Below, piece by piece: positions 2 through 64,000 of a stretch of 64,000 bases of DNA; position 1 is the stretch's first letter, and each line of letters begins with the position of its first letter. The DNA comes from a virus (taxonomy: Duplodnaviria; Caudoviricetes): positions 64,001 to 128,000 of IMG/VR virus record IMGVR_UViG_3300013426_000016; one strand, written 5' to 3'. A program made the translations under genes and the position numbers. Under the pieces are notes generated by a model. It ran no database searches. It was not told the origin of the DNA and worked only from the letters and a program-made list of their open reading frames with translations.

Positions 2-3000
2 AAGGAACAATGATTTAATGAAGATGGAGATTTAGTAACGATTCTAGTACAAGAAGATATTAATAGTGCTTTAAATGCTTTGGAATCTCCTTATCACATA
101 GAAGATATACAAGATGCTGTAGAGAATGCTTTGATGGCAAATCGCTGTTTTAGTGTTGCTAAAAAGTATATTTTGTATAGAGAGAAACATGCACAAATAA
201 GAAAAGAGGTTGAGAAAAATTTACAATTTATAAATAAATTTATTTCTTCAGATAACACTGCAAATGCTACTATAGACGATAATTCTAATGTTAGTAATCA
301 TAATATTGCTGTTTTAAATGCTGAAATACATAAAGAAAATAATCAAAATACAAATTATAGACTTTTAGAGGATACTATAAAACAACTATATCCAGATTTT
401 GATTACAAACAATTTATAAAAGATTGTAATTCAATTTGTTATGTACATGATTCAAGTTCTCAAATTGGAATGCCTTATTGTGTCGCTATTACTATGTATC
501 CTTTTCTTACAGAGGGTATTAAAAAACTTGGAGGACTTTCCGCAAAACCAGAATCCCTAGAAAGTTTTTGTGGAATATTTATAAATATGGTTTTTGCTAT
601 AGCGTCTCAATATAAAGGTGCTGTTGCAACGCCGGGTTTTCTTTTATGTATGGATTGGTTTTGTAGGCAAGAATGGGGAGATGATTATATTTATCATTTA
701 GATAAAGTTGTTTCTTTAGGAAAGAAAAATCGTACTATTGAGTCTCAAATTGTTCAATATTTTCAACAAATAACATTCAGTATCAACCAACCCGCATCGG
801 CACGCGGAGGGCAATCAGTTTTCTGGAATTGTTCGATCTTTGATAAAGAATTTTATAATACAATGTATGGAGATTTCTTTTTTCCAGATGGAACTGCTCC
901 AGTTTGGGAAACCTTTAATTGGTTGCAAAAAAAGTATTTGCATTGGCTCAACCAAGAGCGTTTAAAAACTCTTTTAACATTTCCAGTAGTTTCTGTAGCT
1001 TTAATTTATAGGAATAATCAATTTGTAGACCAAGAGTTATTTGAATATGCCTGTCAAGAGTATTCTGAAGGAAATTCATTCTTTACATATATAAATGATT
1101 CTCCGGAAAGCTTAAGTTCATGCTGCTTTTCAAAAGACCAAAAGATTTTATGGAAATCTTCAACATCTGGAGTTCATTTAACTACCTTCGAAGAATTTAA
1201 AAATCTTCCATATAGTGGAAATAAAGAAAATTTTAAAATATTTCATAATGGAAGTTGGGTAAAAGGAAAATTTGTAGAACTTCCAAATAGAAAAATGTAT
1301 GAAGTTACTACATTTAATAATAAGAAAATTGTTGTAACAGATAATCATCTTAATCCAACTCTAAGAGGTGATATTCCAACTTCTGAATTAACGATAAATG
1401 ATTATTTACTTTTTAATCAACAGCCTACAAATGCAATTTCTGAAAACGATGAACACTTAACATACGAACAGGGGTTTGTAATTGGAACGTTTTTAGGAGA
1501 TGGAAATTTTGGTTCTGAGCAAAATGGAGTAATTTATGATATTAATCTCTCTTTAAATTTGGAAAAGCATAAAAAATGCATGGAAATGTTGGATATTGCA
1601 AACCAACAAGTGGGTGGGCAAAATAAGCCATATCTTGCTTCTATATATAATAATGTTTATCCAGTTAGACTTTCTTCTAAAGAATTAGTAGCATTTATTA
1701 CAAAATGGACTAATTGGAAAAGAGGGACTTATGCTTTTAATAAAGAACTAAATCTTAATTGTTTGTTACAATCTCTTGATTTTAGAAAAGGTATTTTAGA
1801 TGGGTGGTACGCTACGGATGGAGGAAATTCAAATCGTTGTTATACAACTTCTCCAAAACTTGCAGAATGTATGGAGGTATTAATTACTTCTCTTGGACTT
1901 AATTCAATTATTGATATTTCAGATCGTACTGACGAAGCGGTTATTATTAGAGGGGAAGTGTATAAACGAAATTATCCTTTATATTGTGTTCGTTGGTACG
2001 AACCTGCAAATCATCGCAAAAATAAGGATACTGAGAATTCTTGGATTAAAAAGAATAATTCTATTTACTTTAAAATCAAGGATATACATGAAATAGAATA
2101 TTCTGAAAATGTATATTGTTTTGAATGCAGTGAACAAGAGCCTTATTTTACTCTTCCGAATGGTATAATTACTCATAACTGTCGTCTTTCTTCTAAAATT
2201 TCAAAACCACAATTTAATTTTACAAATGGACAAATAGGGGAAATGACTGGTAGTCAGAACGTTATAACACTCAACTTAAATAGAATCGTTCAAGATTGGT
2301 ATAATACATTAGATACTGAAATCGCATTTAAAGAGAAGAGAGGGAAACCTTCTCCACATTTTATTGGAAGTCTCTTAATTACTGACAGAGAGTATCAAGA
2401 AAATTTACAAACTTATCTGATTGAAATTCTAGAAAGAATTTATAAATACCAAACAGCATATAATACATGTCTTAAACGCCTTTTGGAAGCAGGTCTATTA
2501 ACTACTTATACAGCAGGATTTATCGATCTTAAAAAACAATATTTAACTATAGGTATTAATGGATTAAATCAAGGTGCGGAATTTCTTGGATATCAATGCA
2601 ATAAAAATGAAGCTTATAAAAGATTTTGTAATTTAATTTTTGGAACTATTAAAGAACAAAATCAACTCCATAAATCTAAGTCATTGATGTTCAATACAGA
2701 ATTTACACCGTAAATGAACGTGCGGTGTATAAACCTTTCTTAATTGACTCGAAACTCCCTAGTGGACAACGAGGCGCAAGCAGGAGAATTCCGTGCAGCG
2801 TGAGAGACTAAATAGAAAGGACGTAGAAATACGTATGTAATAGTCCGAACTCTATGGTAACATAGAGAGTTAATTAGAAATAATTAACCGTCTAATATAT
2901 AAAACATTAAAATTTATTTTGATTTTTCCTGGAGAATCGTTATATTTGTATATAAATAAATTTATATAAATATGATCGATGTTTCAAAATTAAATGGATT

Positions 3001-5452
3001 AAAATTAATTAAAAGTACGAGAATGGAAATGCCTAAGAACGCAACGTGTTGTGTTTGCGGTGCAACTAGACAAGAAGGAAGATTTCGAAGATTTAATGAA
3101 TATTGTATGTGTGAAAAGCATTTTATGCAAATGATTAATTATGAGAAGATTACCGATCCATCAAAACGTGTCCATAAAAAATCTAAAGAAGAATTAACTT
3201 GTTGTATTTGTGATAACCCTAAAATGGGATGTATTGATGGTAAACCTTATTGTAGAAGGCACTATATTCAAATGAGTAGGAAAGGAGAAGTTAGCGAAAC
3301 CATTTATTCTCCAAATGAGTGAATAGATTGTGGAGATTATTATGAATGCATTTTAAAAGATAAAAATGCAAAGGAAATTGCTCGTACTAAGATTGATAAA
3401 GAAGATAAAGGAAAATTTAAAAATTATAAATTGTATGCAAGGCATCAAAAAGATAAGATGTATGCCCACATTTCAGTACTAGGAACTGGACGTAAAATTG
3501 CCGTGCATAGATTTTTAATGGGACTTGGAGATGCTAAATATACAATAGATCAAGTTGTAGATCATATAAACGGAGATTCCCTAGATAATCGAAAATCTAA
3601 CCTCCGTATATGTACACAACATCAAAATGCACAAAATTTAAGGAAGAAAGGAAAAGTTGTAGGAGTTAAATTTATTAAAAAATATAACGGTAGTAACTTT
3701 TCTAAATTTTCAGCTGTTATTATGCATAATTATAAATCTATTCATTTAGGATATTTCAATACCAAGGCAGAGGCCGTATTAGCACGAATTTCATATGAAA
3801 GAAAGATTTGTGGAGAATATGGTCCGAATAGAGATTTGTTTTATATATTAGATCAGCTCTCTCCTTTGAAGGAACTTAAAAAAATGTTCCCCGAGAGCGT
3901 GTAACAGAATGGCGAATCAGCTTCGATTAAGCTTTATAATCGAGATAAAAAAGATGGATATTGGATTCCAGAAGATACAAATCTTTATGCGAGCTATATC
4001 TATAAACCAAATGACCAAAATATTTCTATTTTGGATAAAATTTATCTTCATGGTAAAGACTTTTGTGGAGATAATTTGGATGGTGGTTCTGCTGCTCATC
4101 TAAACCTCGATTCCCACTTGACAAAAGAACAGTATAAAAAGCTTTTAACTTACGCAGGAGATGTTGGATGTAAATATTTAACATTTAATGTGCCTAATTC
4201 AGAATGTCAAGACTGTGGTTTTATAACGAAAATTCCAATTACAAAATGTCCACATTGTGGTAGTACCAAAATTGACTACTACGATAGAGTGATCGGGTAA
4301 AATGTTAATTGCCCCCATTGTAGGTGACTACAATGGAAAACGCCGAATTTGCTGGAAACCCCTAAGAGCCCATTTGCCTATATGGAGAGAAATCAGAAAC
4401 AAGTAATGGGATGGTTCATGATGTAAGTCTAAAAACAGATATAATGGGAAATCAGCAGACACTATTAAAAATAGGACTAAAATATTTGTGTATTCGCACA
4501 AAATTTTATATATTTATATAGGGTTTCAACGACTACCAAGGCGCACCATAAGTGGTGAAGGTATAGTCTATTCCTATGTTTTATTTTTAATATGTTAATG
4601 TATGAAAGAAATTAAAAAATGTGATGTATGTGGAGTTTTATCTACATATAAAAGAATTAAGTATGTAACTGAAGCTAATAAGGGTTTGTGTGATAAACAC
4701 CGTATGCAATTTTCGAATCATGGTAAATTTTTTGACACCAATTCACGTGGAGTATTCGATTTAAATGAAGTGCGTGTTTTTGAAGATTATGCAGAAATAG
4801 ACACATATGATCAGTATGGTAATATAGTTACTACTTTTAAAATAGATTTAGATAATATTGATTTAGCAAAATCCAGAAAATGAAGAACAGTTTTTAAAAG
4901 AGACAAGCCTTATTTATTTTCAGGAAACCAACATAAGGAACGAGTTTATTTCCATCGATTAATTGTTGATTGTGGAGATATGCAAGTTGATCATATTTCA
5001 GGAGACACCTCCGATAATAGAAAATCAAACCTACGACTTGTTACAATCCAAAATAATATGAAAAATTTACAAAAGAAATGTAATAATAAATCTGGAATAC
5101 GAGGGGTTTCTTTTGACACAAAAAGACAAGTTTGAAAAGTTGATTTCTCATATGAAAAGAAGCGAATTTATCCGCATTCATTTCATAAAAAGGAAGAGGC
5201 AGTCTACTGTAGATATTTACTTGAAAAAACCTTATTAAAAGAATATAGAAACACTTCTAATGATTCTGAATATGAAAAATATATAAAAATGTTATCCGAA
5301 TCTCAAAAACACGACATACAAGAACATGTTAAAGATAAAATAGCGAAAGCTAAGGTATAAAAGATTTAACTAAAATAAAAAATTGGAGTGCTGGAAGACA
5401 ACAAGAGCAAAAAACCAGAGTTTACTCACATATAACAGAAGAAATTAAATAA
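2..5452 (+). CDS. nrdD: Anaerobic (class III) ribonucleotide reductase, 5'-partial; exons <2-2711, 3912-4298, 5364-5452; contains an intein
   Basis: Splicing gives ...NTEFTP-C-ESASIKLY...CQDCG...CPHCGS...DRVIG-Y-LTKIKNWSAGRQ..., i.e. Zn ribbon plus glycyl-radical motif RVIGY; SSC/CRL active-site loop restored after intein removal. Frame stays open to the window start through one TGA at 11-13. Confidence 0.95.
1124..2179 (+). mobile_element. Intein (352 aa) with LAGLIDADG homing endonuclease in NrdD
   Basis: Begins CFSKDQKILW, ends ITHN followed by Cys+1; LAGLIDADG-like blocks GFVIGTFLGDG and GILDGWYATDGG; removal restores SLSSC-CRL. Confidence 0.93.
2918..2948 (+). promoter_or_regulatory. 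Bacteroidota-type sigma promoter inside intron 1
   Basis: TTTG (2918-2921), 19 nt spacer, TATATTTG (2941-2948) matches -33 TTTG / -7 TAnnTTTG; 23 nt upstream of the HNH ATG. Confidence 0.7.
2972..3904 (+). CDS. Intron-encoded HNH homing endonuclease, 310 aa (two CxxC..CxxH fingers, HNH, AP2-like tail)
   Basis: ORFs 2972-3322 and 3431-3904 are in one frame across TGA 3320-3322; VDHINGDSLDNRKSNLR and IHLGYFNTKAEA motifs. Confidence 0.9.
4299..5363 (+). mobile_element. Group I intron 2 of nrdD (1065 nt), HNH-encoding
   Basis: Exon GGGT / intron GCCC P1; TTGCTGGAAA, AATCAGCAG, TTCAACGACTA and TATAGTCT core elements; terminal G; T|AT restores the Tyr of RVIGY. Confidence 0.92.
4602..5360 (+). 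CDS. Intron-encoded HNH-AP2 homing endonuclease, 252 aa
   Basis: Reads through TGA 4881 and 5133 to TAA 5358-5360; VDHISGDTSDNRKSNLR; GIRGVSFDTKRQV(W)KV AP2-like motif with TGA at the conserved Trp. Confidence 0.9.
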
Positions 5453-43362: not shown

Positions 43363-43662
43363 TTACTTACGTACCTTTACGCCACAAGACGCTTTCTTAA
43401 CTTTCTTAAGTTTCCCACCGCAACGCATAAACTGTTGCTCTGATGGTGCTTCTCCAACTGGAGCTTGTGACTGAGCCATATCAAGGATTATCTGTGCAAG
43501 AGCAACGGCTGCTTCGATACCAAGTTGCTCTATAATACTCAGTGCCATTTGTGACAACTGTTGCATTGCTTGCTCTTCAGCCGCAGCTGGTGCAACCTGA
43601 GCTTGAGGTGCAACGCCTCCCTCTTGAAGTTTCTTAACTTCGCTAAAAGATTTAATTTGCAT
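43363..43662 (-). CDS. Small Gln/Ala-rich protein with basic tail, 99 aa
   Basis: Has its own promoter and terminator; codon usage resembles the capsid genes. Confidence 0.8.
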   Translation of the reverse strand: MQIKSFSEVKKLQEGGVAPQAQVAPAAAEEQAMQQLSQMALSIIEQLGIEAAVALAQIILDMAQSQAPVGEAPSEQQFMRCGGKLKKVKKASCGVKVRK

Positions 43663-43747: not shown

Positions 43748-43779
43748 TATCTAGCATATAAGCAAAAGGGTAATTATTT

Positions 43780-43809
43780 TTTGTTTTAAAAAATAAATCA
43801 TTATATTTG
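43780..43809 (+). promoter_or_regulatory. Divergent Bacteroidota-type promoter
   Basis: TTTG, 18 nt, TATATTTG (43802-43809). Confidence 0.6.
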
Positions 43810-43812
43810 TAG

Positions 43813-43917
43813 TGACGAAACCGTCATATAAAGAATGTGACCGCAAAATCTTAGATTTTAACGACATTAACCATTATTTATACGTCATGCCCCGGCTGTT
43901 ATAGTCGGGGCTTTTTT
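43813..43917 (+). ncRNA. Candidate sRNA of about 105 nt
   Basis: Lies between a + strand promoter and a + strand-only terminator; 5' hairpin TGACG-AAAC-CGTCA; no ORF longer than a few codons. Confidence 0.45.
43889..43917 (+). terminator. Intrinsic terminator
   Basis: GCCCCGGCTG-TTA-TAGTCGGGGC-TTTTTT; the G.U pairs and U tract work only on the + strand. Confidence 0.8.
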
Positions 43918-43919
43918 AT

Positions 43920-44621
43920 TTATAATATATATTCTTTTTCATAATTCTTTTCAGATTTTAATAATCCGGTCTTCATCAGTTCCCGATTACAAAAAGAAAC
44001 TGTAGACTCTGGTATACCAAGTTCTTTTGATAATGTTTGGTTTGAAATACTAACTTTTGTAATATTTTTATACTTAATCTTAAAAGAAAATAAAAATGCA
44101 CGTGACGTGTTTGAAATAGTTAAAGAAAATATATTTGCAATAAAAGGCTTATCTAAGTACGTTTTAAGTACACTTACTCTAGAGGTTTTTTCAGACGTGT
44201 CTAGATTTATAAATTTATTTTCTATTAACTCAGTAAGAGATTTTCGTATCGTATCTATACTATAACCTGTTTTAGAGCGTAATTCACGTAATGATATTTT
44301 GTTTTTGCTAACGTAAATAATTGCAGCATAGATAACTCTAGCTGGTTGCCCTATATTAAAAAATGAGACATCTTTACAATTATAACTATTATTATATTCT
44401 TCAAATATTTTAATTATCTCTTTATTATAAACAAACCATTCATCTCGAAATCTATATTTAGAACACAAATTATGTAAAGTACTTTCATCAGTAAAGTCCC
44501 CGTCTCGTATTCCTAGTATTTCAACATCTGGGTTACATGTATCATAGTTTTTAAGTCTATTTGTAAAATTTTTAGTACAACCTATTTTTAGGTAATTTCC
44601 ACTTTTAATTAAGTACACCAT
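43920..44621 (-). CDS. T5orf172/MUG113-type GIY-YIG nuclease fused to two HTH domains, about 233 aa
   Basis: MVYLIKSGNYLKIGCT...RLKNY...ESTLH...DEWF; HTH-like SLRELRSKTGYSIDTIRKSLTEL and SNQTLSKELGIPESTV. Confidence 0.8.
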   Translation of the reverse strand: MVYLIKSGNYLKIGCTKNFTNRLKNYDTCNPDVEILGIRDGDFTDESTLHNLCSKYRFRDEWFVYNKEIIKIFEEYNNSYNCKDVSFFNIGQPARVIYAAIIYVSKNKISLRELRSKTGYSIDTIRKSLTELIENKFINLDTSEKTSRVSVLKTYLDKPFIANIFSLTISNTSRAFLFSFKIKYKNITKVSISNQTLSKELGIPESTVSFCNRELMKTGLLKSEKNYEKEYIL

Positions 44622-44632
44622 ACTATTCAATC

Positions 44633-45412
44633 TTATTCCATAGGGAACTCCTTTTGCTCATTATAACGATTTCTATTAAGAGCAGCTTCTCTTTCCAAAG
44701 CAGCAATTCTACGTTTTAAATCTTGATTCTCATTTTTAATTTCCTCTATATCATCGGTATTCTTCGATACTTGTTCAGTAACTGCTTTCACCCATAAAGC
44801 AGCTTGTTGCAAGCCAGTAAGGTTAAAATTTTTCTGAATTACTGGAAGTCCAGCTTCATCTGTTTTCTCAGTAACTTCCTCTGCAAGAAGCCCCTTCTCG
44901 ATTAATATTGTATTAAATTTTTTAATTGTAGGAACAGATCATCCTGTTAACTCTGAAATCTTTGTATTGGAGAAAGAAATTTTACCAACCCCACTGTCTT
45001 TATCATATAAATATCTTTGTATATCCATATAATATTCTTTAACATTAATTGGTAAATCCAAATCTAAAAATGCGTCTGTAAACATTTCAAAGTGTTTGTC
45101 AAAATTGGAATTATTAAATTCATAAAACCAGGATAGTTTCCCCGTAGCAGGAATTGGTTTTTTAAAAACTTTAATAAAACCAGCTTGAACGAGGCGTTTT
45201 ATTGCTTCTTCTACTTTAGTTTGTCCACAACCAGCTTTTTGTTTAATTTTTGAAATGGAAGGATAACAAACCCGTGTTTCTTCATTCATATATCTCCGGA
45301 TTGCGGCATATACTACTTTATCTCCATGTTGCAAAATTCTTTCTGGATTTTCATTGTCCATAATTAAAAATTTTTTATCATCAAAAGTATGAGGGATTTC
45401 TGTATGCTTCAT
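44633..45412 (-). CDS. Putative replication initiator / DNA-binding protein, tandem winged HTH plus coiled coil, 259 aa
   Basis: CYPSISKIKQKAGCGQTKVEEAIKRLVQAGFI; second HTH SNTKISELTG(W)SVPTIKKFNTILIEKGLL spans TGA 44939; ends TAA 44633; adjacent to iterons. Confidence 0.75.
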
Positions 45413-45454
45413 TATTTATACGTTTTAAAAATTATTGATCTATTATATATATCA

Positions 45455-45486
45455 CAAATATATCATTATTTTTTAAAACAAACAAA
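45455..45486 (-). promoter_or_regulatory. Bacteroidota-type promoter for the Rep-like gene
   Basis: Minus strand TTTG (45486-45483), 20 nt, TATATTTG (45462-45455). Confidence 0.7.
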
Positions 45487-45516
45487 TTTTTTCTATAAAA
45501 ATACGTGAAATGGATG

Positions 45517-45609
45517 GGTAGGCAAACCTCATTTTTAGGTAGGCAGATTTCATTTTCAGGTAGGCAAAACCCAAATCCGGGTAGGCAAAATCGATTTTCA
45601 GGTAGCAAA
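45517..45609. repeat. Five iteron-like direct repeats GGTAG(G)CA at an exact 21-bp period; putative origin
   Basis: Core starts at 45517, 45538, 45559, 45580 and 45601; AT-rich flanks on both sides. Confidence 0.85.
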
Positions 45610-45688
45610 CTATATTTAATAGATTTAATATACCTAATAGACCTATGAACTATACCTAAGGAAATTAAAAAATTTTAAAAAGTAAAAT

Positions 45689-45720: not shown

Positions 45721-46317
45721 TTATTTTTCCACATACTGTGGGTCTCGGTTTTCTTGTGCTTCAAGCTCTTTAAAGATATATCTTCCTAGAGCTTTGTAGT
45801 CACTATCTTCTTTTGTTTTAAAAGCTTTTTTCGCTTTTCTAATTATAACTTTAGTTGCTACTCTACTAAAGATTCTTTCTCCACCTTGTAATTTAAATTG
45901 TACTGAACCATCTGCATTTAAAAGGAGCATCTCATTTTTAGGTAAATCAAAATCGTTTTCTATAATTTCGACTTCTTCTCCTACTTTTAATTCTTCTTTA
46001 TCCGATACTTCAAGCACATAAGCGACATTATAACCTTCCAAATATTCAAGGCTAAATGGTTCACCTTTATATACATTGGTTATAACATCTTCATCATTTA
46101 CAAAAGCTATTGTAAGTGGAATCTCAGTATCTTCCATCCAGAAAGCAAGTTCTTCTTGTGGATTGTCTCTAAAATCAAAAAAGAAACCTTCGCCTTTATC
46201 GAGTTTAGTAACGCCTTTAGCACCAAATTCTTTTTCCTCTTCAGTTTTCATTACGAGAAGATTGAACTCTTTCCCATTAATTAAAACTTTTATTTTATCA
46301 AGTTTACTATAGTCCAT
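45721..46317 (-). CDS. DUF192-like protein with C-terminal extension, 198 aa
   Basis: GFFFDF...FWMEDTEIPLTIAFV...YVLEV pattern. Confidence 0.75.
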   Translation of the reverse strand: MDYSKLDKIKVLINGKEFNLLVMKTEEEKEFGAKGVTKLDKGEGFFFDFRDNPQEELAFWMEDTEIPLTIAFVNDEDVITNVYKGEPFSLEYLEGYNVAYVLEVSDKEELKVGEEVEIIENDFDLPKNEMLLLNADGSVQFKLQGGERIFSRVATKVIIRKAKKAFKTKEDSDYKALGRYIFKELEAQENRDPQYVEK

Positions 46318-47432
46318 TACTCAACCTCCTTTACTAAACCAGTATTATCATCACAGTTATTAAAAAGAGTGCATACAATGATTTTTCCACACTCTATCAT
46401 AGAATCTTCATCTCCTTTTTTCCAGAGATCTTCTACTTTATTTGTGAGAGATTTCTCTAGAATCATTTCATTTCTTTCGATTTCTGCACATTGTTCTACA
46501 TTTCCTTTTTCATCTGTAACTACTACCGGTATTCCTTTATTTGTAAGTTCTTTAGCTAACTCCGGATTTGTCTCATCCATATTATGTTTATTTTTATGTA
46601 AAGCTCCTTCCGGAATTAAAATAGAACCTCCATTTTGGAATTTAGTTATCTCCTTTTTACATGCTTGTATTTTATGTAACTCTTCTTTAGAGAGTAATTT
46701 AACCCCATCTTTAGCATATAAGCCATATCTTTGGTTTATTTGATGCTGAAGTTCTTGAGAAGTATTACTATTCTTTCTAAGCGTGTTAGTATTATATATA
46801 TTTGAAATCATTTTAGCTTGTTCGTTAGCAGTATTAATTCCAGAATTAATTTTATTTCCTCCCAAGAATCTTTGTCCTCCCATATCAGCCATAGTATTTA
46901 TATAATTAACACTATTTGAGTAAGCACCAGAAAGTTTATCTACGTCATCATTTTTAGCTACTTCTCCAGTTTTAGACATAAATGCACCAGCAAGAGGCAC
47001 ATAAGAGAGAGTATTGTTCATCACTCTTTGAAAATCAGAAAGACCGACTGTTTCTTGTTCTGTTTCTGACATTGTACTACTATTTGTATCTGTAAAATCA
47101 CCTATAGTAGAAAGAGTGTTCCAAACTGCTCCCGCAGCCATTAAATAAGGATTGCCACTTTGCATAGCAAGATTTCCTATAGCTTTTTGTCCAGAAGAAG
47201 AGGTTCTTTCTTTAGGAGTAGTAAATCCAGAAGTTAAATTATTCAGTAAATTAACTCCAGTAGAAATATTTCCTATTTGCTGAGAATAATTATTTCCAGT
47301 GCGTCCTCCTACAGTTGCTTTTGGGCGCAATCCATCAGATTTTTCAGTAACAGCTTTTCCTATAAGAGGATTATTACTTGAGTAATGATTATTCGCTAAC
47401 TGAGTTAATGTATTTAAAAAATCTTGTGTCAT
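46317..47432 (-). CDS. Putative virion protein, 371 aa
   Basis: TAATG-coupled to both neighbours; KFQNGG and AEIERNE motifs. Confidence 0.75.
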   Translation of the reverse strand: MTQDFLNTLTQLANNHYSSNNPLIGKAVTEKSDGLRPKATVGGRTGNNYSQQIGNISTGVNLLNNLTSGFTTPKERTSSSGQKAIGNLAMQSGNPYLMAAGAVWNTLSTIGDFTDTNSSTMSETEQETVGLSDFQRVMNNTLSYVPLAGAFMSKTGEVAKNDDVDKLSGAYSNSVNYINTMADMGGQRFLGGNKINSGINTANEQAKMISNIYNTNTLRKNSNTSQELQHQINQRYGLYAKDGVKLLSKEELHKIQACKKEITKFQNGGSILIPEGALHKNKHNMDETNPELAKELTNKGIPVVVTDEKGNVEQCAEIERNEMILEKSLTNKVEDLWKKGDEDSMIECGKIIVCTLFNNCDDNTGLVKEVE

Positions 47433-50400
47433 TAGCTATAACTTATTGTTAATAAAGTTTTTAGAGCTGTAATTATAACCTGTTCAGTTCCAGTATATTT
47501 AACTCTTATCTTAACGTATTTATCTCGAACTTTTGCAGATTTTAAATCGCTCCAACGACCTTCTACATTTTTATATGTTTCTCTAAATAAAATAGGATCT
47601 ATAGTAACATACCAAGCATCTTCTTTATATTGGATATTTCCCAGTCTCCTACCAAAATTATATATGTTCTTACATGGCTGATTTAATACCAAAGAATAAG
47701 TATTTAAAGTAGTATCCCATTTAATAGAACAATTCTTAAACCTCTGTGTAACTTTAGTAGTTTTCTTTTCGGTCTCAGTTGGATTATATGTAGATGCTTG
47801 GATTCGAGGAGTATAATCAATTTCTTTGGCATATTTTCATTCTTTCTCTGTTATAGAAGGATATACTGTCAAACCCTTTTCGTCTACAGTAAAATCTTCA
47901 AACATATTCGGTTCAAAGGTTTTAGAAGCAAATATGCCAGCTTTATTAAAGTTAAATACGTCTCCTATAATTTCGTATTCAATTTCATTTGGTTGCACAT
48001 TATTAGAAATAATAACCAAATTATCAAATATCTTGTGCATACCTATAGGATCGTTAACTACAAATTCGAGTTCAAATGGTTCTTGTTTTTCATACCATTT
48101 AGTAGGTAAAATCTGATCATCTAAAGACTCGTTATCGTAATTTATTTCATCAAATATACCAGCTCTTCCATGCACATAAAAACCATTCTGCAAGAAAACT
48201 CTCTCCAACTCTTCTCTATTTGTTAGCTTCTGATTATTTAAAATTAACCCAACACTCTCAGTAAAAGAAGAAGTCCCACTTCCTATTTTTAAAGTGATTT
48301 TTAAATTAAATTTAAACCACAATGGGAAGTGATCGGCATCCTTAAATTCTTTCATAAATGCCTCTAAAATCGTGCTATAAGTTGCTTTAATAGTCTTACC
48401 CTCAACAGTAAATAAAGACGATTTTAGGGTAGTTTCTGTAACAATTCCAGCCTCTTTAAAAGAGGTTTCAACCGACATAATTTCAATAGTATAATCATCG
48501 ATATGGTCATACCCTTTTAGATTAATTGGCATCGAAAGTGTGGAGTCCATATTTGCTGGTATAGACCACTCATTTACGGGCGTATAGACACCTAAGGTAG
48601 TATTCCTATTATTATATATTATACTGAGCAATTTGGCCCGTTTCTGATCCAAAGAGTAGAAAATGTTATTAATGTTTTCTGAGTAAAGAGGAGTTCAAGT
48701 ATATCTTGTAATCCACTTATTCATTCTTTCATTAAAACATATATTCCAGCTCTCTTTATCTTTATTATAGAAAGTAAACATTATGTCTCCTTTATAATTA
48801 TTATAATGAGACTTAACATTTCTAAGAGCTACTATAGGAGACTTATCCATTTCTGATAATTGTATCTTATTATTAAGATACTGTTGTATTTTCATATCTG
48901 AAATGGTTTCTAAACCAGAGCTTCCATATCTCCAAATTTTCTTTGCATAGGTATCTACACCATATATGCCATTAGGAGTTCTAACAACAGATTCTGGCCA
49001 TATAGAACCGAAATCTGGAGAAATTAAAGTAATCTGATTTTGTACTACACCTGCCCCGTACATATGAATAGATTGTGAAGTAGAAGTTTGTATAAGGGCT
49101 TTTTCGTTTATTGGTATAATACCTAAACCATGTTCAAATACGCAGAAAATATTACCATTTAAAGGTAAGAATTTAACTATAGCTCCATATTGTCTATCTA
49201 TATCTTTATAATCAAGACCTTGGAAAATTCTATAAGAGTTTTTAAATTCATCTTCTTGTTGCACATCGGAGAACATAATTCTGTTATCAAATAACTCCTT
49301 AACATAAGGTACGTTATCTGCAACAAAATTTCTTTTTTGTCCTAATGTAACATTATAACCTTGGTTTAATAGCCAGCTCTCTTCTATTTTAGAAGAAACA
49401 GTAGCATTCATATCAGACAATGGATAAAAGCTTCTAGAATTACCCATAAGGGCTCTCTCATCGGTATGAGAAATGTCTTCTGCACGTAAACCTAAATTAT
49501 AATTAGAAAGGCATTTAAAGGTCACTCAATGGCCTAAATTAACAGAGTTTACATCTGCCCTATTTATACTTGCATAACTTCCAGTAGAGTCAGTAGCTTC
49601 TCCAGAAGTCATTTTATTGTAACCTTTATAATTATCTTTCCAGGTACTAGGACTCACTATTAACTCATTTATAGGAACATCTGAATCTATAAAGTTCCTA
49701 TTAAGTCTAATTGTGACAGTATTTGTATAACAGTCTCCCCTAAAGACTTGTATAGTATTTGTATTTCCCAACTCATATCTATCTGAAATAGCATAGAAAG
49801 AAGAATTATCTTTTCCTCTAATAGAGAAGTAATCTTTTAATCTTGTTATAGAATAATTAGGAATCCTAATATCGTATATAGTATTATTTTGTAAAGTTCT
49901 ATTTGCACCTAAGAATGGACAATATAATCCTCTGATTAAATTATTTGCACTAGCACTATAATCGGGCTGACTAAAGAAAGAGAACTGACTCACATCTTCT
50001 TGAGTACCACATTTAGTGGAATAACTATATCCATTTATATACTTCATAGGAGAATCGGAACCTACAAATATTAAAGAAGTGTTTGCACTCTCTTTAGTTA
50101 AAGTCCCACTCTCTTTTAAAGCATAATGTCTTTTAGATTTAGTGAGAGTACCTACTTTATTTGTTCTTGGATGCAAAATAAATTCAGAACCATCATAATT
50201 ACTTTGTAAAGTAGGATTAACACAGGCATCTAAAGAAAGGAGTCCAGAACATTGTATATATGGAGTTTTTACTATTCTATCTTCATAAGTTTGTGTTAAT
50301 AATCTAGAACCATTAGAAACAAAACTTTCTGAAAAATATTTTTCTCCATCGTACAACATTGGTACATAACTAGATCTATCTATACCTACAGAAAAGCCTT

Positions 50401-51946
50401 GCCCTAAAGTAGTAGGAATTCTTTCTTGTCTTACAAAGAAATACCCTTTTACTTTATATTCTTTTAAGAGTTCTTGTATTTCATTAGAAATGGAAAGCTC
50501 ATAATAAAGAGGTTGTACTTTACTATTAGTATAATCAAATATTGTAGCGTCCGGGTTCTTAAATACTCCAAAAGTATTATCTAAGAATTTGCCTTTATTT
50601 AGAAAGTCATCGCGAGTTAAATAATTCATTTTAACTTCAGAAGCATCTATTAAAGAAAGTGCATTATTTGTATACTTGTAATACTTTAAGGTAGAGAGAT
50701 CTTTATAGACTTTATCTGCTTCTAAAGTAAGCGCTTTAGTACAACCTTTATCAGAATAAAATTTATTTTCTTTATAATATCCAAAGTAATCTCCTTTAAG
50801 TTCAGTATCCTCTCTATCTGTAAAGTTATCGTCATTTATAGCAGAAAACTCACATCCTCTAAGATTAAATACAGAACTTAAAGAATCATCATTCATCACA
50901 AATACTACTCCAAGTCTATATATTTCATTTGGTCAGTAACCAAGTTTATAATAGATGTTATTTGGACTGTAATATTCAGTTTGGTAGTTATTTGCACTAG
51001 AAACACTATAATCATCTGGAGAAACTCAACCTATATTAGATTCTTGCTTAAGTGCTACTTTTATATAGTATGCTATATTTTGTAAATCCTTTATATTGTA
51101 GGTAACACCTTGCACATTTCCAAGAAATAGCATATTCTGAACTTGAGCTTGAGTCTTAGCAGCTGTTACTAAATTATATTTAATATTAAGTTCTTCTACG
51201 GAAATGTCAGTGATTTCCTCATAACCATTTAAAGTTATAGTTTCTACGTCATTCTTAATATCATATGGCTTTGTGAACATTCCTGCTTTAGTAAGCCTAA
51301 TTCCATTTGTATCACTAGTTTCTCTTACAAAATAAAGATAGAACTTAGAAAAAGAGGTATCTATATTACTAATTTTTAAAGTAATTGCTTTATCTGTAAG
51401 TTCATTCAGTAAAGTTCCAGATACAGAAGTTACTTTATCTAAATACCCTTTAAAAATGGCTACTTGTCCAGACTCGCATACTATATCTGTTTTATTGTAA
51501 TCATTATCTGCAAACTTTATATAAAAGGTATAATTACCGCCTTTTAATTTTCCGTAATTAGAAACATCATTTAAATCTATCCTTGGTATTTTATTTATAT
51601 TTCTAAATAGTCTTGTTTGACGATCTATTTTACCTTTTTTATATAAGTTGGTTTGCTCTAATTGATTCCTATTTATGACTTTATATCTATTATCTTCTAT
51701 TTTAGTAAACCTTGTATTAATGATTCTTGGTGGATTCTTATCATCATTTAAAATAAGATTCACTGTACCATCATAAGAAGGTTGACATTCTATATTAAGA
51801 GGGTTATTTAAATCTATATCCAGCTCTTTAGTTCTAAACTCCACTATTTGATTGTTTTCGTCTACTTGATTAAAAAGAGCGTGATACTCGTTTGCTAAAT
51901 CCCCTTCTTGTTTATTTGCTTTTATATTAAGTTGTATATTAGCCAT
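47432..51946 (-). CDS. Large tail protein (crAss muzzle / tail stabilization-like), 1504 aa
   Basis: Five ORFs join across TGA at 51026, about 50933, 49526, 48695 and 47837; LGY(W)PNEIYRLGVVF, VFRGDCY, C-terminal RDKYVKIRVKY. Confidence 0.82.
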
Positions 51947-60517: not shown

Positions 60518-63500
60518 CTACTTAAAGAAAGAATCACGTGTCTCTGAACCCATCATGATCACTGATCTATATGGGTTAAACACAGCCACGCTTGCATAGC
60601 CCCAGTCAATGTATTTAACGCCAGCTACAGGAGAGGAAACAACTCCTCCTTGGAGTCCTGTAGCTCCACCTCATTTTACATTTTAATTATTTCTAATTAA
60701 ATCAGACTATATCTTTATCCTATATTCTATTACCGTCTATAGGACATTTCCCGTTTCCATCATTTAGATGTACTCTACTCCATTACTTCTTTTAAGATTT
60801 GCTTAAAAGTACTGTTTCGATAGTCGTTGAACTTTCGGTAGAGCTTCGTAATACGCTTGCATATCCTACCGCTTAGCTGCTGATTATCCAATCTTTAACA
60901 TTTTCACCTTTTAGGTAGTTAAAGCTATAAGGAACTCCCAGCAATTAGAGAAATTATTTTTTCTTAGTATTACTACTAAGTGGCGCAAGTGGTTTAGTTT
61001 ACGCCATTTACAATGTTCTGGATCAAATCTCCACCCTTAAAGGTGAAGTAACCGAGTGCAGGACGGCCCGTAGCTGCATCAGCAGTAAGGTCGATGATTG
61101 CACCAAACGCACGGTTAGGGAACTCTACATCAAAGCTCCTATCAAGCTTAACAAGAAGTGTGTTCTTTATTATTAACTATAATTATTTCTAATTATACTA
61201 GACTATATCTTTAACTTTCTTCTTTTACCGTTGAAAGTCATTTCCTGTTTCCATTATTAAAAAATGTACTCTACTGATTCTTTTTTAATATTTCTTTAAA
61301 AAAGAAATTTTCGATAGTCGTTGAACTTTCCCCACGTATAAAAGATACAGAGGGGCTTAGCTGCTGATTGACCAATCTTTATAATTTTTAAGCATTCACA
61401 CCTAATGTTTCCATTTATGTTATAGCTTATAAAGCTTAAGGTTTTTCCAGCAATTAAGGAAATTTATTATAAATAGATTTCTCTATTTAGGTGGCAACAC
61501 ATTTTACCACCATACTCGTAAGCAGAATACGTAGCTCCGAGCTTAATGTAGCCATTCTTTTCTTTAGAGTACAGGAAGGCGTTGTCAGACTTGTGCTCTA
61601 CAACCCACTTACCCATTACACTCTGCCACTGATTATAGAAGAAAGTGTTGCACATTAAAATGTACGTATTCCCTTGTGCCTTCTCAGACTTAGCGGACAT
61701 GGCCATAAGAGCCTTCTCAAAATAATCAATGGTAAGTTTGTTAAATACAAACTTGGTAGCGAAACGCTCTACCTGCGGTATTACCAATTTGTTAATATAG
61801 CATTGTTTATATGCTATTTCTTATACTTTTATTCGCATAAGATCAGACTATATCTTCACCTATATAGGTGACTCTTGTTCGTGAAGTTATATTATTCTTC
61901 TGGAGACATTAGTTTATATTCAAACTCGGGAAGTATATAAGGCCTTAATAAAGAAGACCATTTTCTACCTTCTCTAGTTCTACATTTTAAATAATATCTA
62001 ATTTCTCCTTTTTTATTTAGTTTTTTAATCGGATAAAAATTTATATCATATTTCTCTTTAAAGAAATCTATAATATTTTGGGTGTCTTCTGGATTAGTCA
62101 TAGTATAAAAATAGAAAGAATGAGAACGGATTTTTTTAGTTCCTTTATAATAGTCTTTTGCATGACTACCATCATCCATCCATCATAGAGCAATTGCTTC
62201 TGGAGTTAAATAGTTTAGCATTTTTCTACTAAACCTCTTTTCTCCACTTTTATATATCCATTTATATAATATTCTAAAATACCTATGCCCTTTACTTATT
62301 TTATAGGTATCTTTTTTTATTCTATGATATATACTTGGAAGTTTTCCACCTAATAAGGTAACAAGTAAGTTAGCCTTATATTCAAGGTAACTTTTTTGCT
62401 TACTTCCATGCTCTATTTCTAAAGCAACACCACTGTGAGCATTTAAATGCCCATCTCCTAAAATTAATCCAATTAAAAGTGCTTTTTTTCGTTTATCCAT
62501 ATAAAATGATAGTAATTACAATAATATAACTCTAGTCGTTACACCTTCCTTATATAAGGCTTGGCTCGGTATTCTCATCGCAGAGTTCACCGAATTAAAG
62601 AGTTTTTGCATAACTGATTTCTCAGTTAAGCGGCATAAAGTTTACCGTCCGTAGAAATGAGCGGCCTACCAATCTCGTCATAGCGTTAGACTATATCTTA
62701 TTCTATAAAGACTGTATATCTGATGTATTTCCATAAAAATATCTTCATCTTAAATTCTTACAAGTTTTACTTTTACCTTCTATAACATTATAAATAGGCC
62801 CCGGAGTTATATTCATATACTCAGCAGCTTCTTTAACATTTGTAAAAGATTTTATAAACTTGCCTTCTAAAGTATAAGATGCACAAGCTGTATTTTTCTT
62901 AGAGGCTCTTAAAGCAAATCTTTTCTTATAACTTCAAAAATAACCTCCAGCCTGTATTTGTTTATCCACACAAACTGCAAATATAGATTTATATGAAATG
63001 CCAGTTTGTCTGTCAGCCTCATGTAAAGACTTGTAATAAGTTATATAATTTCCTTGTAAATCAAACTGATAAACAACTTTTTCTCTGTTTTTACAAGGAG
63101 ATATGCTTTCAGTACTTCCCGTGAAAAACCTTCACTGAAAATCTTTGCATTTCCTTTCTTTTAAGCAAGCATCTCCAATACCACTTTTAGAAATACCTGT
63201 TTCTCTGGAAGCTTCGGAAATAGAGTTTCAAGTTTTTATAAAGTTACCTTCCAAATCATACTGATTAACTTGTTTTTCACTTACAGAAGAAGGAACTTTT
63301 CCTCCTAAACAACTATTATAAACATCTTTTCTCTTTATAAATTCTCTATTTACCAATTCGGCTTCTTTCTTATATGCTGCTATTTTACCCTTCTCTGTAC
63401 CAGGAAATTCATATAAAGTTTCCCTTACAAAATTATTTATTCCATATTTAATAACAGCTTTCTGAAAAACAGTAGAGTGTTTTTGCTTTAAATCTCCTTT

Positions 63501-64000
63501 ACAGGAAATTCCACAGCCTATATAACCATCGAAATCATCAGAAAGAGTACCGTGTACTCCTATATATATTTTACCATTTATGGTATTTGTTGTCTTGTAT
63601 ACTATATATTTTAGCATTAGATCTGAACTTTTAGTCGTTGAACATTTTCCTCTATGAGGAACCTTTGCTGCTGATTATCTAAATATTATTTTTTTCAGAC
63701 TTTCACACTTACTAAAAAGTTATGTTGTAGTAAATAATATATAAAGAACTCCCAGCAATTTGAACAGTTTTTAACTATACATTACTGCATAGAAAGACCT
63801 ATGATTGATCTTGGGCTTCCCGTCAGCCGAAACGTTGCCCTTACCCCAGGTAAGAGAATTGTTACGAGCTTCCATGAAGTTGTCAAGACAATCCTTTTCA
63901 GCAGGATTCATCTTGTAAACATGATCAGTAGATTCGTTACCTTTACCTATCTTAATGAAAACATCTTCCATACCAGCGTACTTAGCAGACATATCCACAT
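60518..64000 (-). CDS. Major capsid protein, 5'-partial; exons >64000-63808, 62683-62644, 61784-61506, 61164-61001, 60671-60518
   Basis: Spliced product ...DGKPKI-YDEIGRPLISTDG-VIPQVERF...AYEYGG-NTLLVKLDR...NIVNGV-GGATG...RDSFFK* is continuous; exon phases add up; biased codons; position at the head of the structural module. Confidence 0.88.
60672..61000 (-). mobile_element. Group I intron D of MCP (329 nt, ORF-less)
   Basis: P1 TGGCGT/GCGCCA; AATTGCTGG, AATCAGCAGC, TTCAACGACTA, AAGATATAGTCT; terminal G. Confidence 0.9.
61165..61505 (-). mobile_element. Group I intron C of MCP (341 nt, ORF-less)
   Basis: P1 GGTGGT/GCCACC; same core elements; P7.1/7.2-type insertion (IA-like); terminal G. 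Confidence 0.9.
61785..62643 (-). mobile_element. Group I intron B of MCP (859 nt), LAGLIDADG-encoding
   Basis: P1 CGGT/GCCG; GTAACGACTA, P8 CACCTATATAGGTG, AAGATATAGTCT; ORF enclosed by the GAGTTATATTATT/AATAATATAACTT stem. Confidence 0.9.
61892..62500 (-). CDS. Intron-encoded LAGLIDADG homing endonuclease, 202 aa
   Basis: LIGLILGDG and AIAL(W)WMDDGS, with TGA 62183 at the conserved Trp. Confidence 0.9.
62684..63807 (-). mobile_element. Group I intron A of MCP (1124 nt), GIY-YIG-encoding
   Basis: P1 AAGAT/GTCTT, P10 CATAG/CTATG; AATTGCTGG, AATCAGCAGC, TTCAACGACTA, AAGATATAGTCTAACG end. Confidence 0.88.
62703..63617 (-). CDS. Intron-encoded GIY-YIG homing endonuclease with three NUMOD1-like repeats, 304 aa
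   Basis: IVYKTTNTINGKIYIGVH; repeats VNQYDLEGNFIKT, VYQFDLQGNYITY, ASYTLEGKFIKS; four in-frame TGA; TAG at 62703. Confidence 0.88.

Follow-up and report, generated by a model that had tools for sequence, protein, structure and literature searches.

A 233-aa protein encoded directly behind the replication gene rep1 of a crAss-like phage joins a putative GIY-YIG endonuclease domain to a tail that appears to have been captured from a replication initiator, and the recognition helices of this tail match a Rep that takes the place of the nuclease gene in a sister strain far better than they match either Rep of the carrier. The reading preferred here, which we put at about an even chance of being right, is that the protein is an origin-directed homing endonuclease, Odn-like in its action and aimed at the allelic origin cassette of sister phages.

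The window, meaning the whole 64-kb stretch of DNA that was analysed, comprises positions 64001-128000 of a 203,856-bp virus record (genome G000), which was assigned to the crAss-like phages by the match of the gene at 47432-51946 to the Crassvirus muzzle family and is close in size to the Zeta group of Crassvirales (145-192 kb; PMC7886860). When TGA is read as tryptophan, 91% of the window is coding instead of 78%, and this code applies throughout, most long virion genes appearing fragmented under table 11; no tRNA genes were found in the 64-kb window. With one TGA read through, rep1 is a single ORF, and a split rep gene was rejected as an artefact of table 11. The best PHROG matches of rep1 are replication initiators. 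Read along the minus strand, the locus runs from the DUF192 gene through AT-rich repeats, iterons, rep1, an 11-bp gap, the nuclease and the hairpin to the 99-aa gene (Table 1), and the 8-bp core of the iterons is absent from the rest of G000; a scan of viral contigs with the phage's own iteron pair returned 88 raw matches. Most of the family Reps examined are likewise preceded by 3-5 repeats of 21-22 bp, located 100-200 bp upstream and behind a common AT-rich block, with a core that varies between Rep subfamilies and is common to close Reps. From this iteron-origin layout we infer that rep1 initiates replication; the GC skew has no turning point at its origin, and rep1 may instead be an autoregulated repressor with the repeats as its operators. 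Full-length Reps of the family sit on phage-like contigs and MAG contigs, and none were found among the plasmid or cultured-phage sets.

Table 1. Features of the rep1 locus and related loci (window coordinates unless a genome or contig is named; a dot marks features without strand)
Feature	Position	Strand	Remarks
Nuclease gene, 233 aa	43920..44621	-	GIY-YIG (T5orf172/MUG113), then two Rep-family winged helices
T5orf172/MUG113 catalytic domain, residues 1-78	44388..44621	-	Pfam match and conserved residues
Winged helix 1, residues ~92-140	44202..44348	-	recognition helix ~122-134
Winged helix 2, residues ~158-225	43947..44150	-	recognition helix ~205-218; better-preserved unit
Last six nuclease codons	43920..43940	-	with hairpin, match rep 3' end of empty-slot relatives (85% over 46 nt)
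Hairpin after slot	43889..43911	+	terminator-like on + strand; common to nuclease, cassette and empty alleles
Variable slot	43924..44632	.	nuclease (window, L009), second origin+rep cassette of ~1055 bp (L137) or empty (L005-L007)
rep1, 259 aa (TGA=Trp; W158 at 44939-44941)	44633..45412	-	tandem winged helix (HTH_36) and C-terminal coiled coil; putative iteron-binding initiator
Four 21-bp direct repeats	45517..45600	.	iteron-like, invariant 8-bp core; upstream of rep1
AT-rich short repeats	45608..45660	.	upstream of iterons; unwinding-element-like; kept before reps of the rep1 family
DUF192 gene	45721..46317	-	conserved upstream flank of rep locus
99-aa gene	43363..43662	-	conserved downstream flank
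Inverted segment pair	43777-43810 and 45454-45487		upstream of the 99-aa gene and of rep1
HNH_3 and GIY-YIG/NUMOD1 genes	2972-3904, 4602-5360, 62703-63617	+, +, -	homing-type genes of the window
Second origin-like/Rep/repL locus	G000:C1:171665-174070		outside window
SF2-helicase-like locus	G000:C1:167030-168800		outside window
Rep-flanking endonuclease-like genes	L001:4929-5873, L045:4745-5374, L006:2747-3757, L022:2303-3259		in relatives

Several further observations concern the replication genes of this phage. At a second locus of G000, an array of four origin-like repeats (21-22 bp each) lies together with the second Rep paralog of the genome and a tandem pair of repL genes. The same AT-rich block also precedes a 507-aa SF2-helicase-like gene, possibly a third type of initiator (an origin-binding helicase), whose product is 46% identical to that of the gene ahead of the nuclease in contig L088. 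Upstream of rep1 and of the 99-aa gene lies an inverted pair of 20-34-nt segments, with 95% complementarity over 20 nt, possibly a promoter or operator. An aromatic-x-hydrophobic C-terminus, perhaps a docking or degradation tail, was found in 92 of 200 Reps and in 10 of 263 G000 ORFs.

The nuclease gene, which contains no TGA codon, starts with the ATG at 44621, 11 bp past the rep1 stop, and because of this short gap it is probably co-transcribed with rep1. That its product begins with a T5orf172-type GIY-YIG domain, as proposed in the sequence-only reading that prompted this analysis, was borne out by Pfam searches, in which both cut-offs were exceeded (MUG113, 32.6 bits against a cut-off of 22.3; T5orf172, 26.2 against 20), and the segments which that reading quoted from both proteins were found to be present. 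All of the family-conserved residues Y3, K12, G14, R22, Y26, E46, H50, E61 and W62 are kept, including those invariant in the family alignment (Y3, R22, E46 and E61, which include the Tyr, Arg and Glu expected of the catalytic domain), and every residue invariant among 57 relatives is present in the domain. The domain is therefore intact-looking and the protein a putative endonuclease. Its sequence was recorded on 37 contigs, and word-index and full HMMER searches for full-length homologs returned none beyond its own 3-member cluster, all further matches being confined to residues 1-80. Single-sequence folding gave an unusable model (pLDDT 42).

The remainder of the protein was compared with the Rep family by profile and by fold. 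Residues 80-233 aligned with two Rep-family profiles in hhalign (probability 93.9, E 1.6e-7; probability 96.1, E 3.2e-9), and the alignment is collinear over both winged helices (~131 columns). A broad Rep profile scored 33.8 bits on the nuclease protein, the best solved structure reaching at most 21.3, and a second profile gave 45 bits, with 200 shuffled sequences at 9.9 or below. The two helix-turn-helix pairs are thus closer than generic HTHs, and by these profile comparisons the tail is Rep-like beyond the level of a generic HTH. The proposal that the tail repeats the layout of the upstream Rep held in part: both units align collinearly with Reps, unit 2 favouring its positional counterpart clearly (26.3 vs 9.5 bits) and unit 1 weakly (20.7 vs 18.8 bits), but their order carries little signal, since the linker between them is not conserved (2-6 of 28 residues) and exchanging the two units costs almost nothing in overall profile score (43.4 vs 45.0 bits). 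Several near-invariant Rep residues of wing 1 and the linker are lost. When modelled with Rep homologs in the alignment, the tail is a well-folded tandem winged helix (pLDDT 88), a model biased toward the Rep fold by the inclusion of those homologs. In the ESM Atlas, viral HTH_36/DnaD_N proteins about as long as a Rep make up most of the structures closest to the model over residues 82-233. Fold searches for a solved tandem counterpart met single winged helices of a generic kind and nothing closer (best Z 9.3), and Foldseek found nothing at E<=0.001.

The tail had also been taken for a paralog of the neighbouring Rep, a claim that stands for the family and falls for the neighbour itself. Direct comparison of rep1 with the tail is weak (E 6e-5), and with 67 Smith-Waterman points rep1 ranks only 68th among 200 Reps, so the tail is a family-level paralog rather than a copy of rep1. 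The highest-scoring Reps belong to another subfamily (L081, L095, L097 and L133). The second Rep of the sister strain L137, a member of this tail-matching subfamily, scored 127 (E 5e-10), although its overall identity to the tail is only ~31%. At 21 recognition positions, defined as the turn and third helix of both units according to the helices of the model and chosen after the alignments had been seen, the tail and the L137 Rep are identical at 16 (rank 1 of 201), compared with 3/21 for rep1 (rank 168 of 201) and 8/21 for the second Rep of G000; beyond the recognition helices, identity to the L137 Rep is 20%. Among 9,771 Rep-Rep pairs with 20-40% outside identity, which are not independent of one another, none reached 16/21 and the maximum was 14, a match of 16/21 being typical of Rep pairs that are 80-90% identical. 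Some of the tail residues in common with the L137 Rep are found in fewer than 10% of Reps. Recognition helices kept amid such drift are what would be expected if DNA-binding specificity had been under selection.

When the comparison is extended to the complete HTH units, four Reps are level at 26/58, and the target may accordingly be an origin anywhere in the matching subfamily. In a tree the tail falls near this subfamily on a very long branch (length 3.9), and its ancestry is not settled by phylogeny, since a clade of the tail with rep1 was not rejected by the AU test (p-AU 0.43). A weight matrix built from the five L137 repeats found no clustered match in the 204-kb G000, where the best single match scored 16.2, compared with 19-26 for the L137 repeats themselves. 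At its recognition helices, the captured domain is more like an initiator from another replicon than like either Rep of the carrier. The earlier suggestion that a nuclease had acquired the DNA-binding module of an initiator is supported by the hhalign probabilities (93.9-96.1) and the shared recognition helices, and of the two targets suggested for it, a heterologous origin is the likely one, the tail having retained the recognition helices of the Rep that L137 encodes in place of the nuclease, whereas nicking of the phage's own origin is disfavoured by the low recognition-helix match to both G000 Reps.

Three states of the slot after rep1 were found among relatives with homologous flanks, namely empty, occupied by a second origin+rep cassette and occupied by the nuclease. 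It is empty in an 80%-identical relative, and in L005-L007 (rep 87% identical) the 99-aa gene follows directly after rep; DNA homology of the empty-slot relatives to the window ends at 44669 and restarts at 43940. L137 is 99.5% identical to the window over origin+rep1 up to 44634 and 95.9% identical from 43923 on, and between these points, in place of the interval 44632-43924, it has a complete second origin (a five-repeat array) and a 252-aa Rep, an arrangement read from one contig only; this Rep, as its table-11 product, was recorded on 8 contigs plus two variants. The end of the L137 cassette is an exact 24-nt repeat of the rep1 3' end, so that, given the match of the last nuclease codons and hairpin to the rep 3' end of empty-slot relatives, each insert carries at its end a copy of a rep 3' terminus. 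The cassette as a whole (L137:1006-2088) is bounded by this 24-nt direct repeat of the resident rep 3' end, which suggests that origin+rep cassettes of its kind may be mobile on their own. The idea that the nuclease element gives rep1 a new C-terminus was dropped, as rep1 ends in the same way in the nuclease-free L137. L091 likewise has reps in tandem with one origin apiece, and further multi-rep loci were found in L119, L116 and L039.

Patchy presence beside rep, which the sequence-only reading had named as a check, was seen not only in the slot but also in a wider sample, where the nuclease was found behind 3 of 108 rep genes, each time as the first gene downstream. Unrelated endonuclease-like genes also adjoin rep in relatives, some with Zn-finger repeats and a PD-(D/E)xK-like end and others HNH-like (Table 1); the rep locus attracts nucleases. 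One of these, an HNH-like gene before rep in L022, was considered as a second Rep-tail fusion and ruled out (hhalign probability <1).

Relatives of the catalytic domain number more than 1,300 at E<=0.001 and carry varied tails. Their 160 tail clusters comprise 34 that are RepL-like, 9 akin to the C-terminus of an origin-linked SF2-helicase-like protein, 4 akin to the Rep coiled coil, 2 akin to Rep winged helices and 111 others; some tails are NUMOD1. A Rep-like tail is thus not needed for a place behind rep, as about two thirds of the family tails are not recognisably initiator-derived. Some captures appear to be recent, the RepL tail of one relative having 80.6% DNA identity over 356 nt with a free repL gene and the coil tail of another 66% identity over 44 aa with a Rep. 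All nine members that were looked up (six picked for their tails and three for contig size) lie directly behind a rep, repL or SF2-helicase-like gene. L085 and L086 have common flanking genes around rep+nuclease and repL+nuclease, respectively, and L104 and L131 have rep and nuclease domain in common and differ in their tails. In L082 (1117-2817), repL is followed by two family nucleases in tandem, one of them RepL-tailed.

Under the preferred reading of an origin-directed homing endonuclease, the tail would bind the iterons of the rival cassette, or those of close kin in the same Rep subfamily. When two sister phages met in one cell, the nuclease would cut at the rival cassette, the break would be repaired from the nuclease-bearing genome by way of the near-identical flanks, and the nuclease would replace the cassette, leaving the rival genome at a disadvantage; the carrier is proposed to be immune because its own origins have other iterons. 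In favour of this are the match of the recognition helices to the Rep of the alternative cassette, far beyond that of the rest of the sequence, the lack of an array of L137-type iterons in G000, and the precedents of Odn (PMC8263062) and of T4 homing by break repair (PMC2988022). Against it weigh the near-invariant Rep residues lost in wing 1 and linker, the low overall identity to the L137 Rep with a donor that the tree does not place, the single contig behind the sister-strain arrangement, the large share of family tails without recognisable initiator origin and the indirect case for an initiator role of the Rep, with no turning point of the GC skew at the rep1 origin. An ordinary free-standing homing endonuclease, cutting nuclease-free alleles at or near rep and bearing an interchangeable tail without iteron specificity, is somewhat unlikely, though it would suit the variety of the tails, with L104 and L131 differing in the tail but not in rep or nuclease domain, as well as the unrelated endonuclease-like genes beside rep (L001, L006, L045), a Kehishuvirus relative in the structural module away from any rep, and the other homing-type genes of the window, which are two genes for HNH_3 endonucleases and one GIY-YIG-like gene containing several NUMOD1 repeats. 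It explains neither the retention of recognition helices with rare residues amid 20% identity nor their match to the Rep that can fill this slot.

A domesticated Odn-type defence directed at origins of other co-infecting crAss-like phages or of a satellite that uses the matching Rep subfamily, without homing at the slot and placed where a second rep cassette formerly lay, is improbable: Odn itself is a precedent (PMC8263062), a second rep in the slot would be a ready donor, and the matching subfamily is widespread, its Reps being encoded on many further large phage contigs and frequently more than once in a genome, but no satellite or plasmid with a full-length family Rep was found in the plasmid and cultured-phage sets, and the best match is an allelic cassette whose flanks would ease repair from the nuclease allele. 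It is quite improbable that the gene is a decaying or non-cutting remnant, left when a nuclease inserted into a second rep cassette and today either neutral or a DNA-binding repressor; the degenerate wing and linker and the confinement of full-length homologs to one small cluster would fit such a remnant, whereas the open frame, the retention of all family-conserved residues of the catalytic domain, the well-folded tail model and the recurrence of the same sequence on 37 contigs argue against it. Very improbable, finally, is a role as a replication helper in nicking the origin of the phage itself. Family members follow initiator-like genes in all 9 cases looked up and at 3 rep-centred loci, usually with translational coupling, yet the nuclease accompanies only 3 of 108 sampled rep genes, near-identical strains lack it, and its recognition helices match neither Rep of G000.

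The fusion type is already published, and to speak of an undescribed system, as was done at the outset, overstated the case. Odn (Gp88) of the Vibrio phage ICP1 joins T5orf172 to a captured RepA_N domain and binds and cuts the iterons of the PLE satellite in an iteron-dependent manner (PMC8263062), and such fusions have arisen repeatedly and independently, as in Gp5 and the Odn-like genes of coliphages Inny, Muut and Mt1B1_P17 (PMC10448857). The present protein resembles Odn in its fusion of a T5orf172 domain to the origin-binding domain of an initiator, its size of ~230 aa, its locus with alternative alleles and the proposed cutting of iterons of a replicon other than the carrier's. It differs in the reversed domain order (nuclease N-terminal, winged helices C-terminal), in a captured module that is a tandem HTH_36-type winged helix from the phage's own Rep family, in a gene position directly behind the initiator gene, in a candidate target that is the allelic origin cassette of a sister phage instead of a satellite, and in the lower identity to the putative counterpart (~31% to the L137 Rep; 42% for Odn to its RepA). 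No RepA_N domain was found among Pfam matches to E=1. The nuclease is thus not an Odn ortholog and would at best work like Odn.

The free-standing GIY-YIG homing endonucleases of T4 (SegB, SegE, SegF and SegG) spread through repair of the breaks they make (PMC2988022), and ICP1-like phages also have homing genes of the T5orf172 type (PMC10448857). With both, the present gene has in common a promoter-less nuclease cassette beside an essential gene, a patchy distribution among relatives and a catalytic domain with a swappable DNA-binding tail, and its spread would likewise be expected to proceed by break repair with marker exclusion. The tails of the ICP1-type genes are mostly Zn-fingers (87% CapR/DUF723/DUF4397; PMC10448857), whereas those of the present family are pieces of initiators (RepL, Rep or the origin-linked helicase C-terminus), NUMOD1 or coils, and most of the family found here lies behind genes of the initiator kind. 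Within Crassvirales, initiator genes like those of plasmids, with predicted origins beside them, are known from Carjivirus communis (bioRxiv 10.1101/2024.03.20.585998), in a work that deals with RepL; the words 'iteron' and 'HTH' do not appear in its text, and a tandem-HTH Rep with 21-22-bp iteron arrays and a linked nuclease is not covered there. Searches of an incomplete paper collection found nothing on crAss-like phages and T5orf172 together, and in the literature no report of an allelic-origin target or of an initiator-linked family pattern was found.

A wider picture, offered tentatively, is that large crAss-like phages carry mobile origin+initiator cassettes at rep 3' ends and, in the same slots, a dedicated GIY-YIG family that repeatedly captures initiator domains to cut allelic origins between sister phages, which would account for the diversity seen in iterons and recognition helices. 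If true, homing and origin targeting would be joined in one element, the presence of several initiators with fast-changing iterons in these gut-type phages would have a reason, and a natural set of small nucleases would exist whose specificity is set by swappable initiator domains. To our knowledge, origin-directed nucleases have so far been shown only as phage weapons against satellites. The natural alleles predict a specific, testable target, namely the rival origin cassette in the same slot of the 99.5%-identical sister phage; its substrates are short and open to in vitro work that needs no phage culture.

Two observations on relatives bear on neighbouring lineages. The exception to rep linkage in the family, the Kehishuvirus gene located among structural genes, is present in five cultured phages (tikkala and PhiCrAssBcn14-16 and 18; L089/L090:3501-4046), where it is annotated as hypothetical, and offers a culturable model for the catalytic domain. 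In the ESM Atlas, a MUG113+RepL cluster was found (39% of 56 members), together with a classical GIY-YIG cluster in which 21% of 57 members carry RepL, which may represent a second nuclease lineage capturing RepL.
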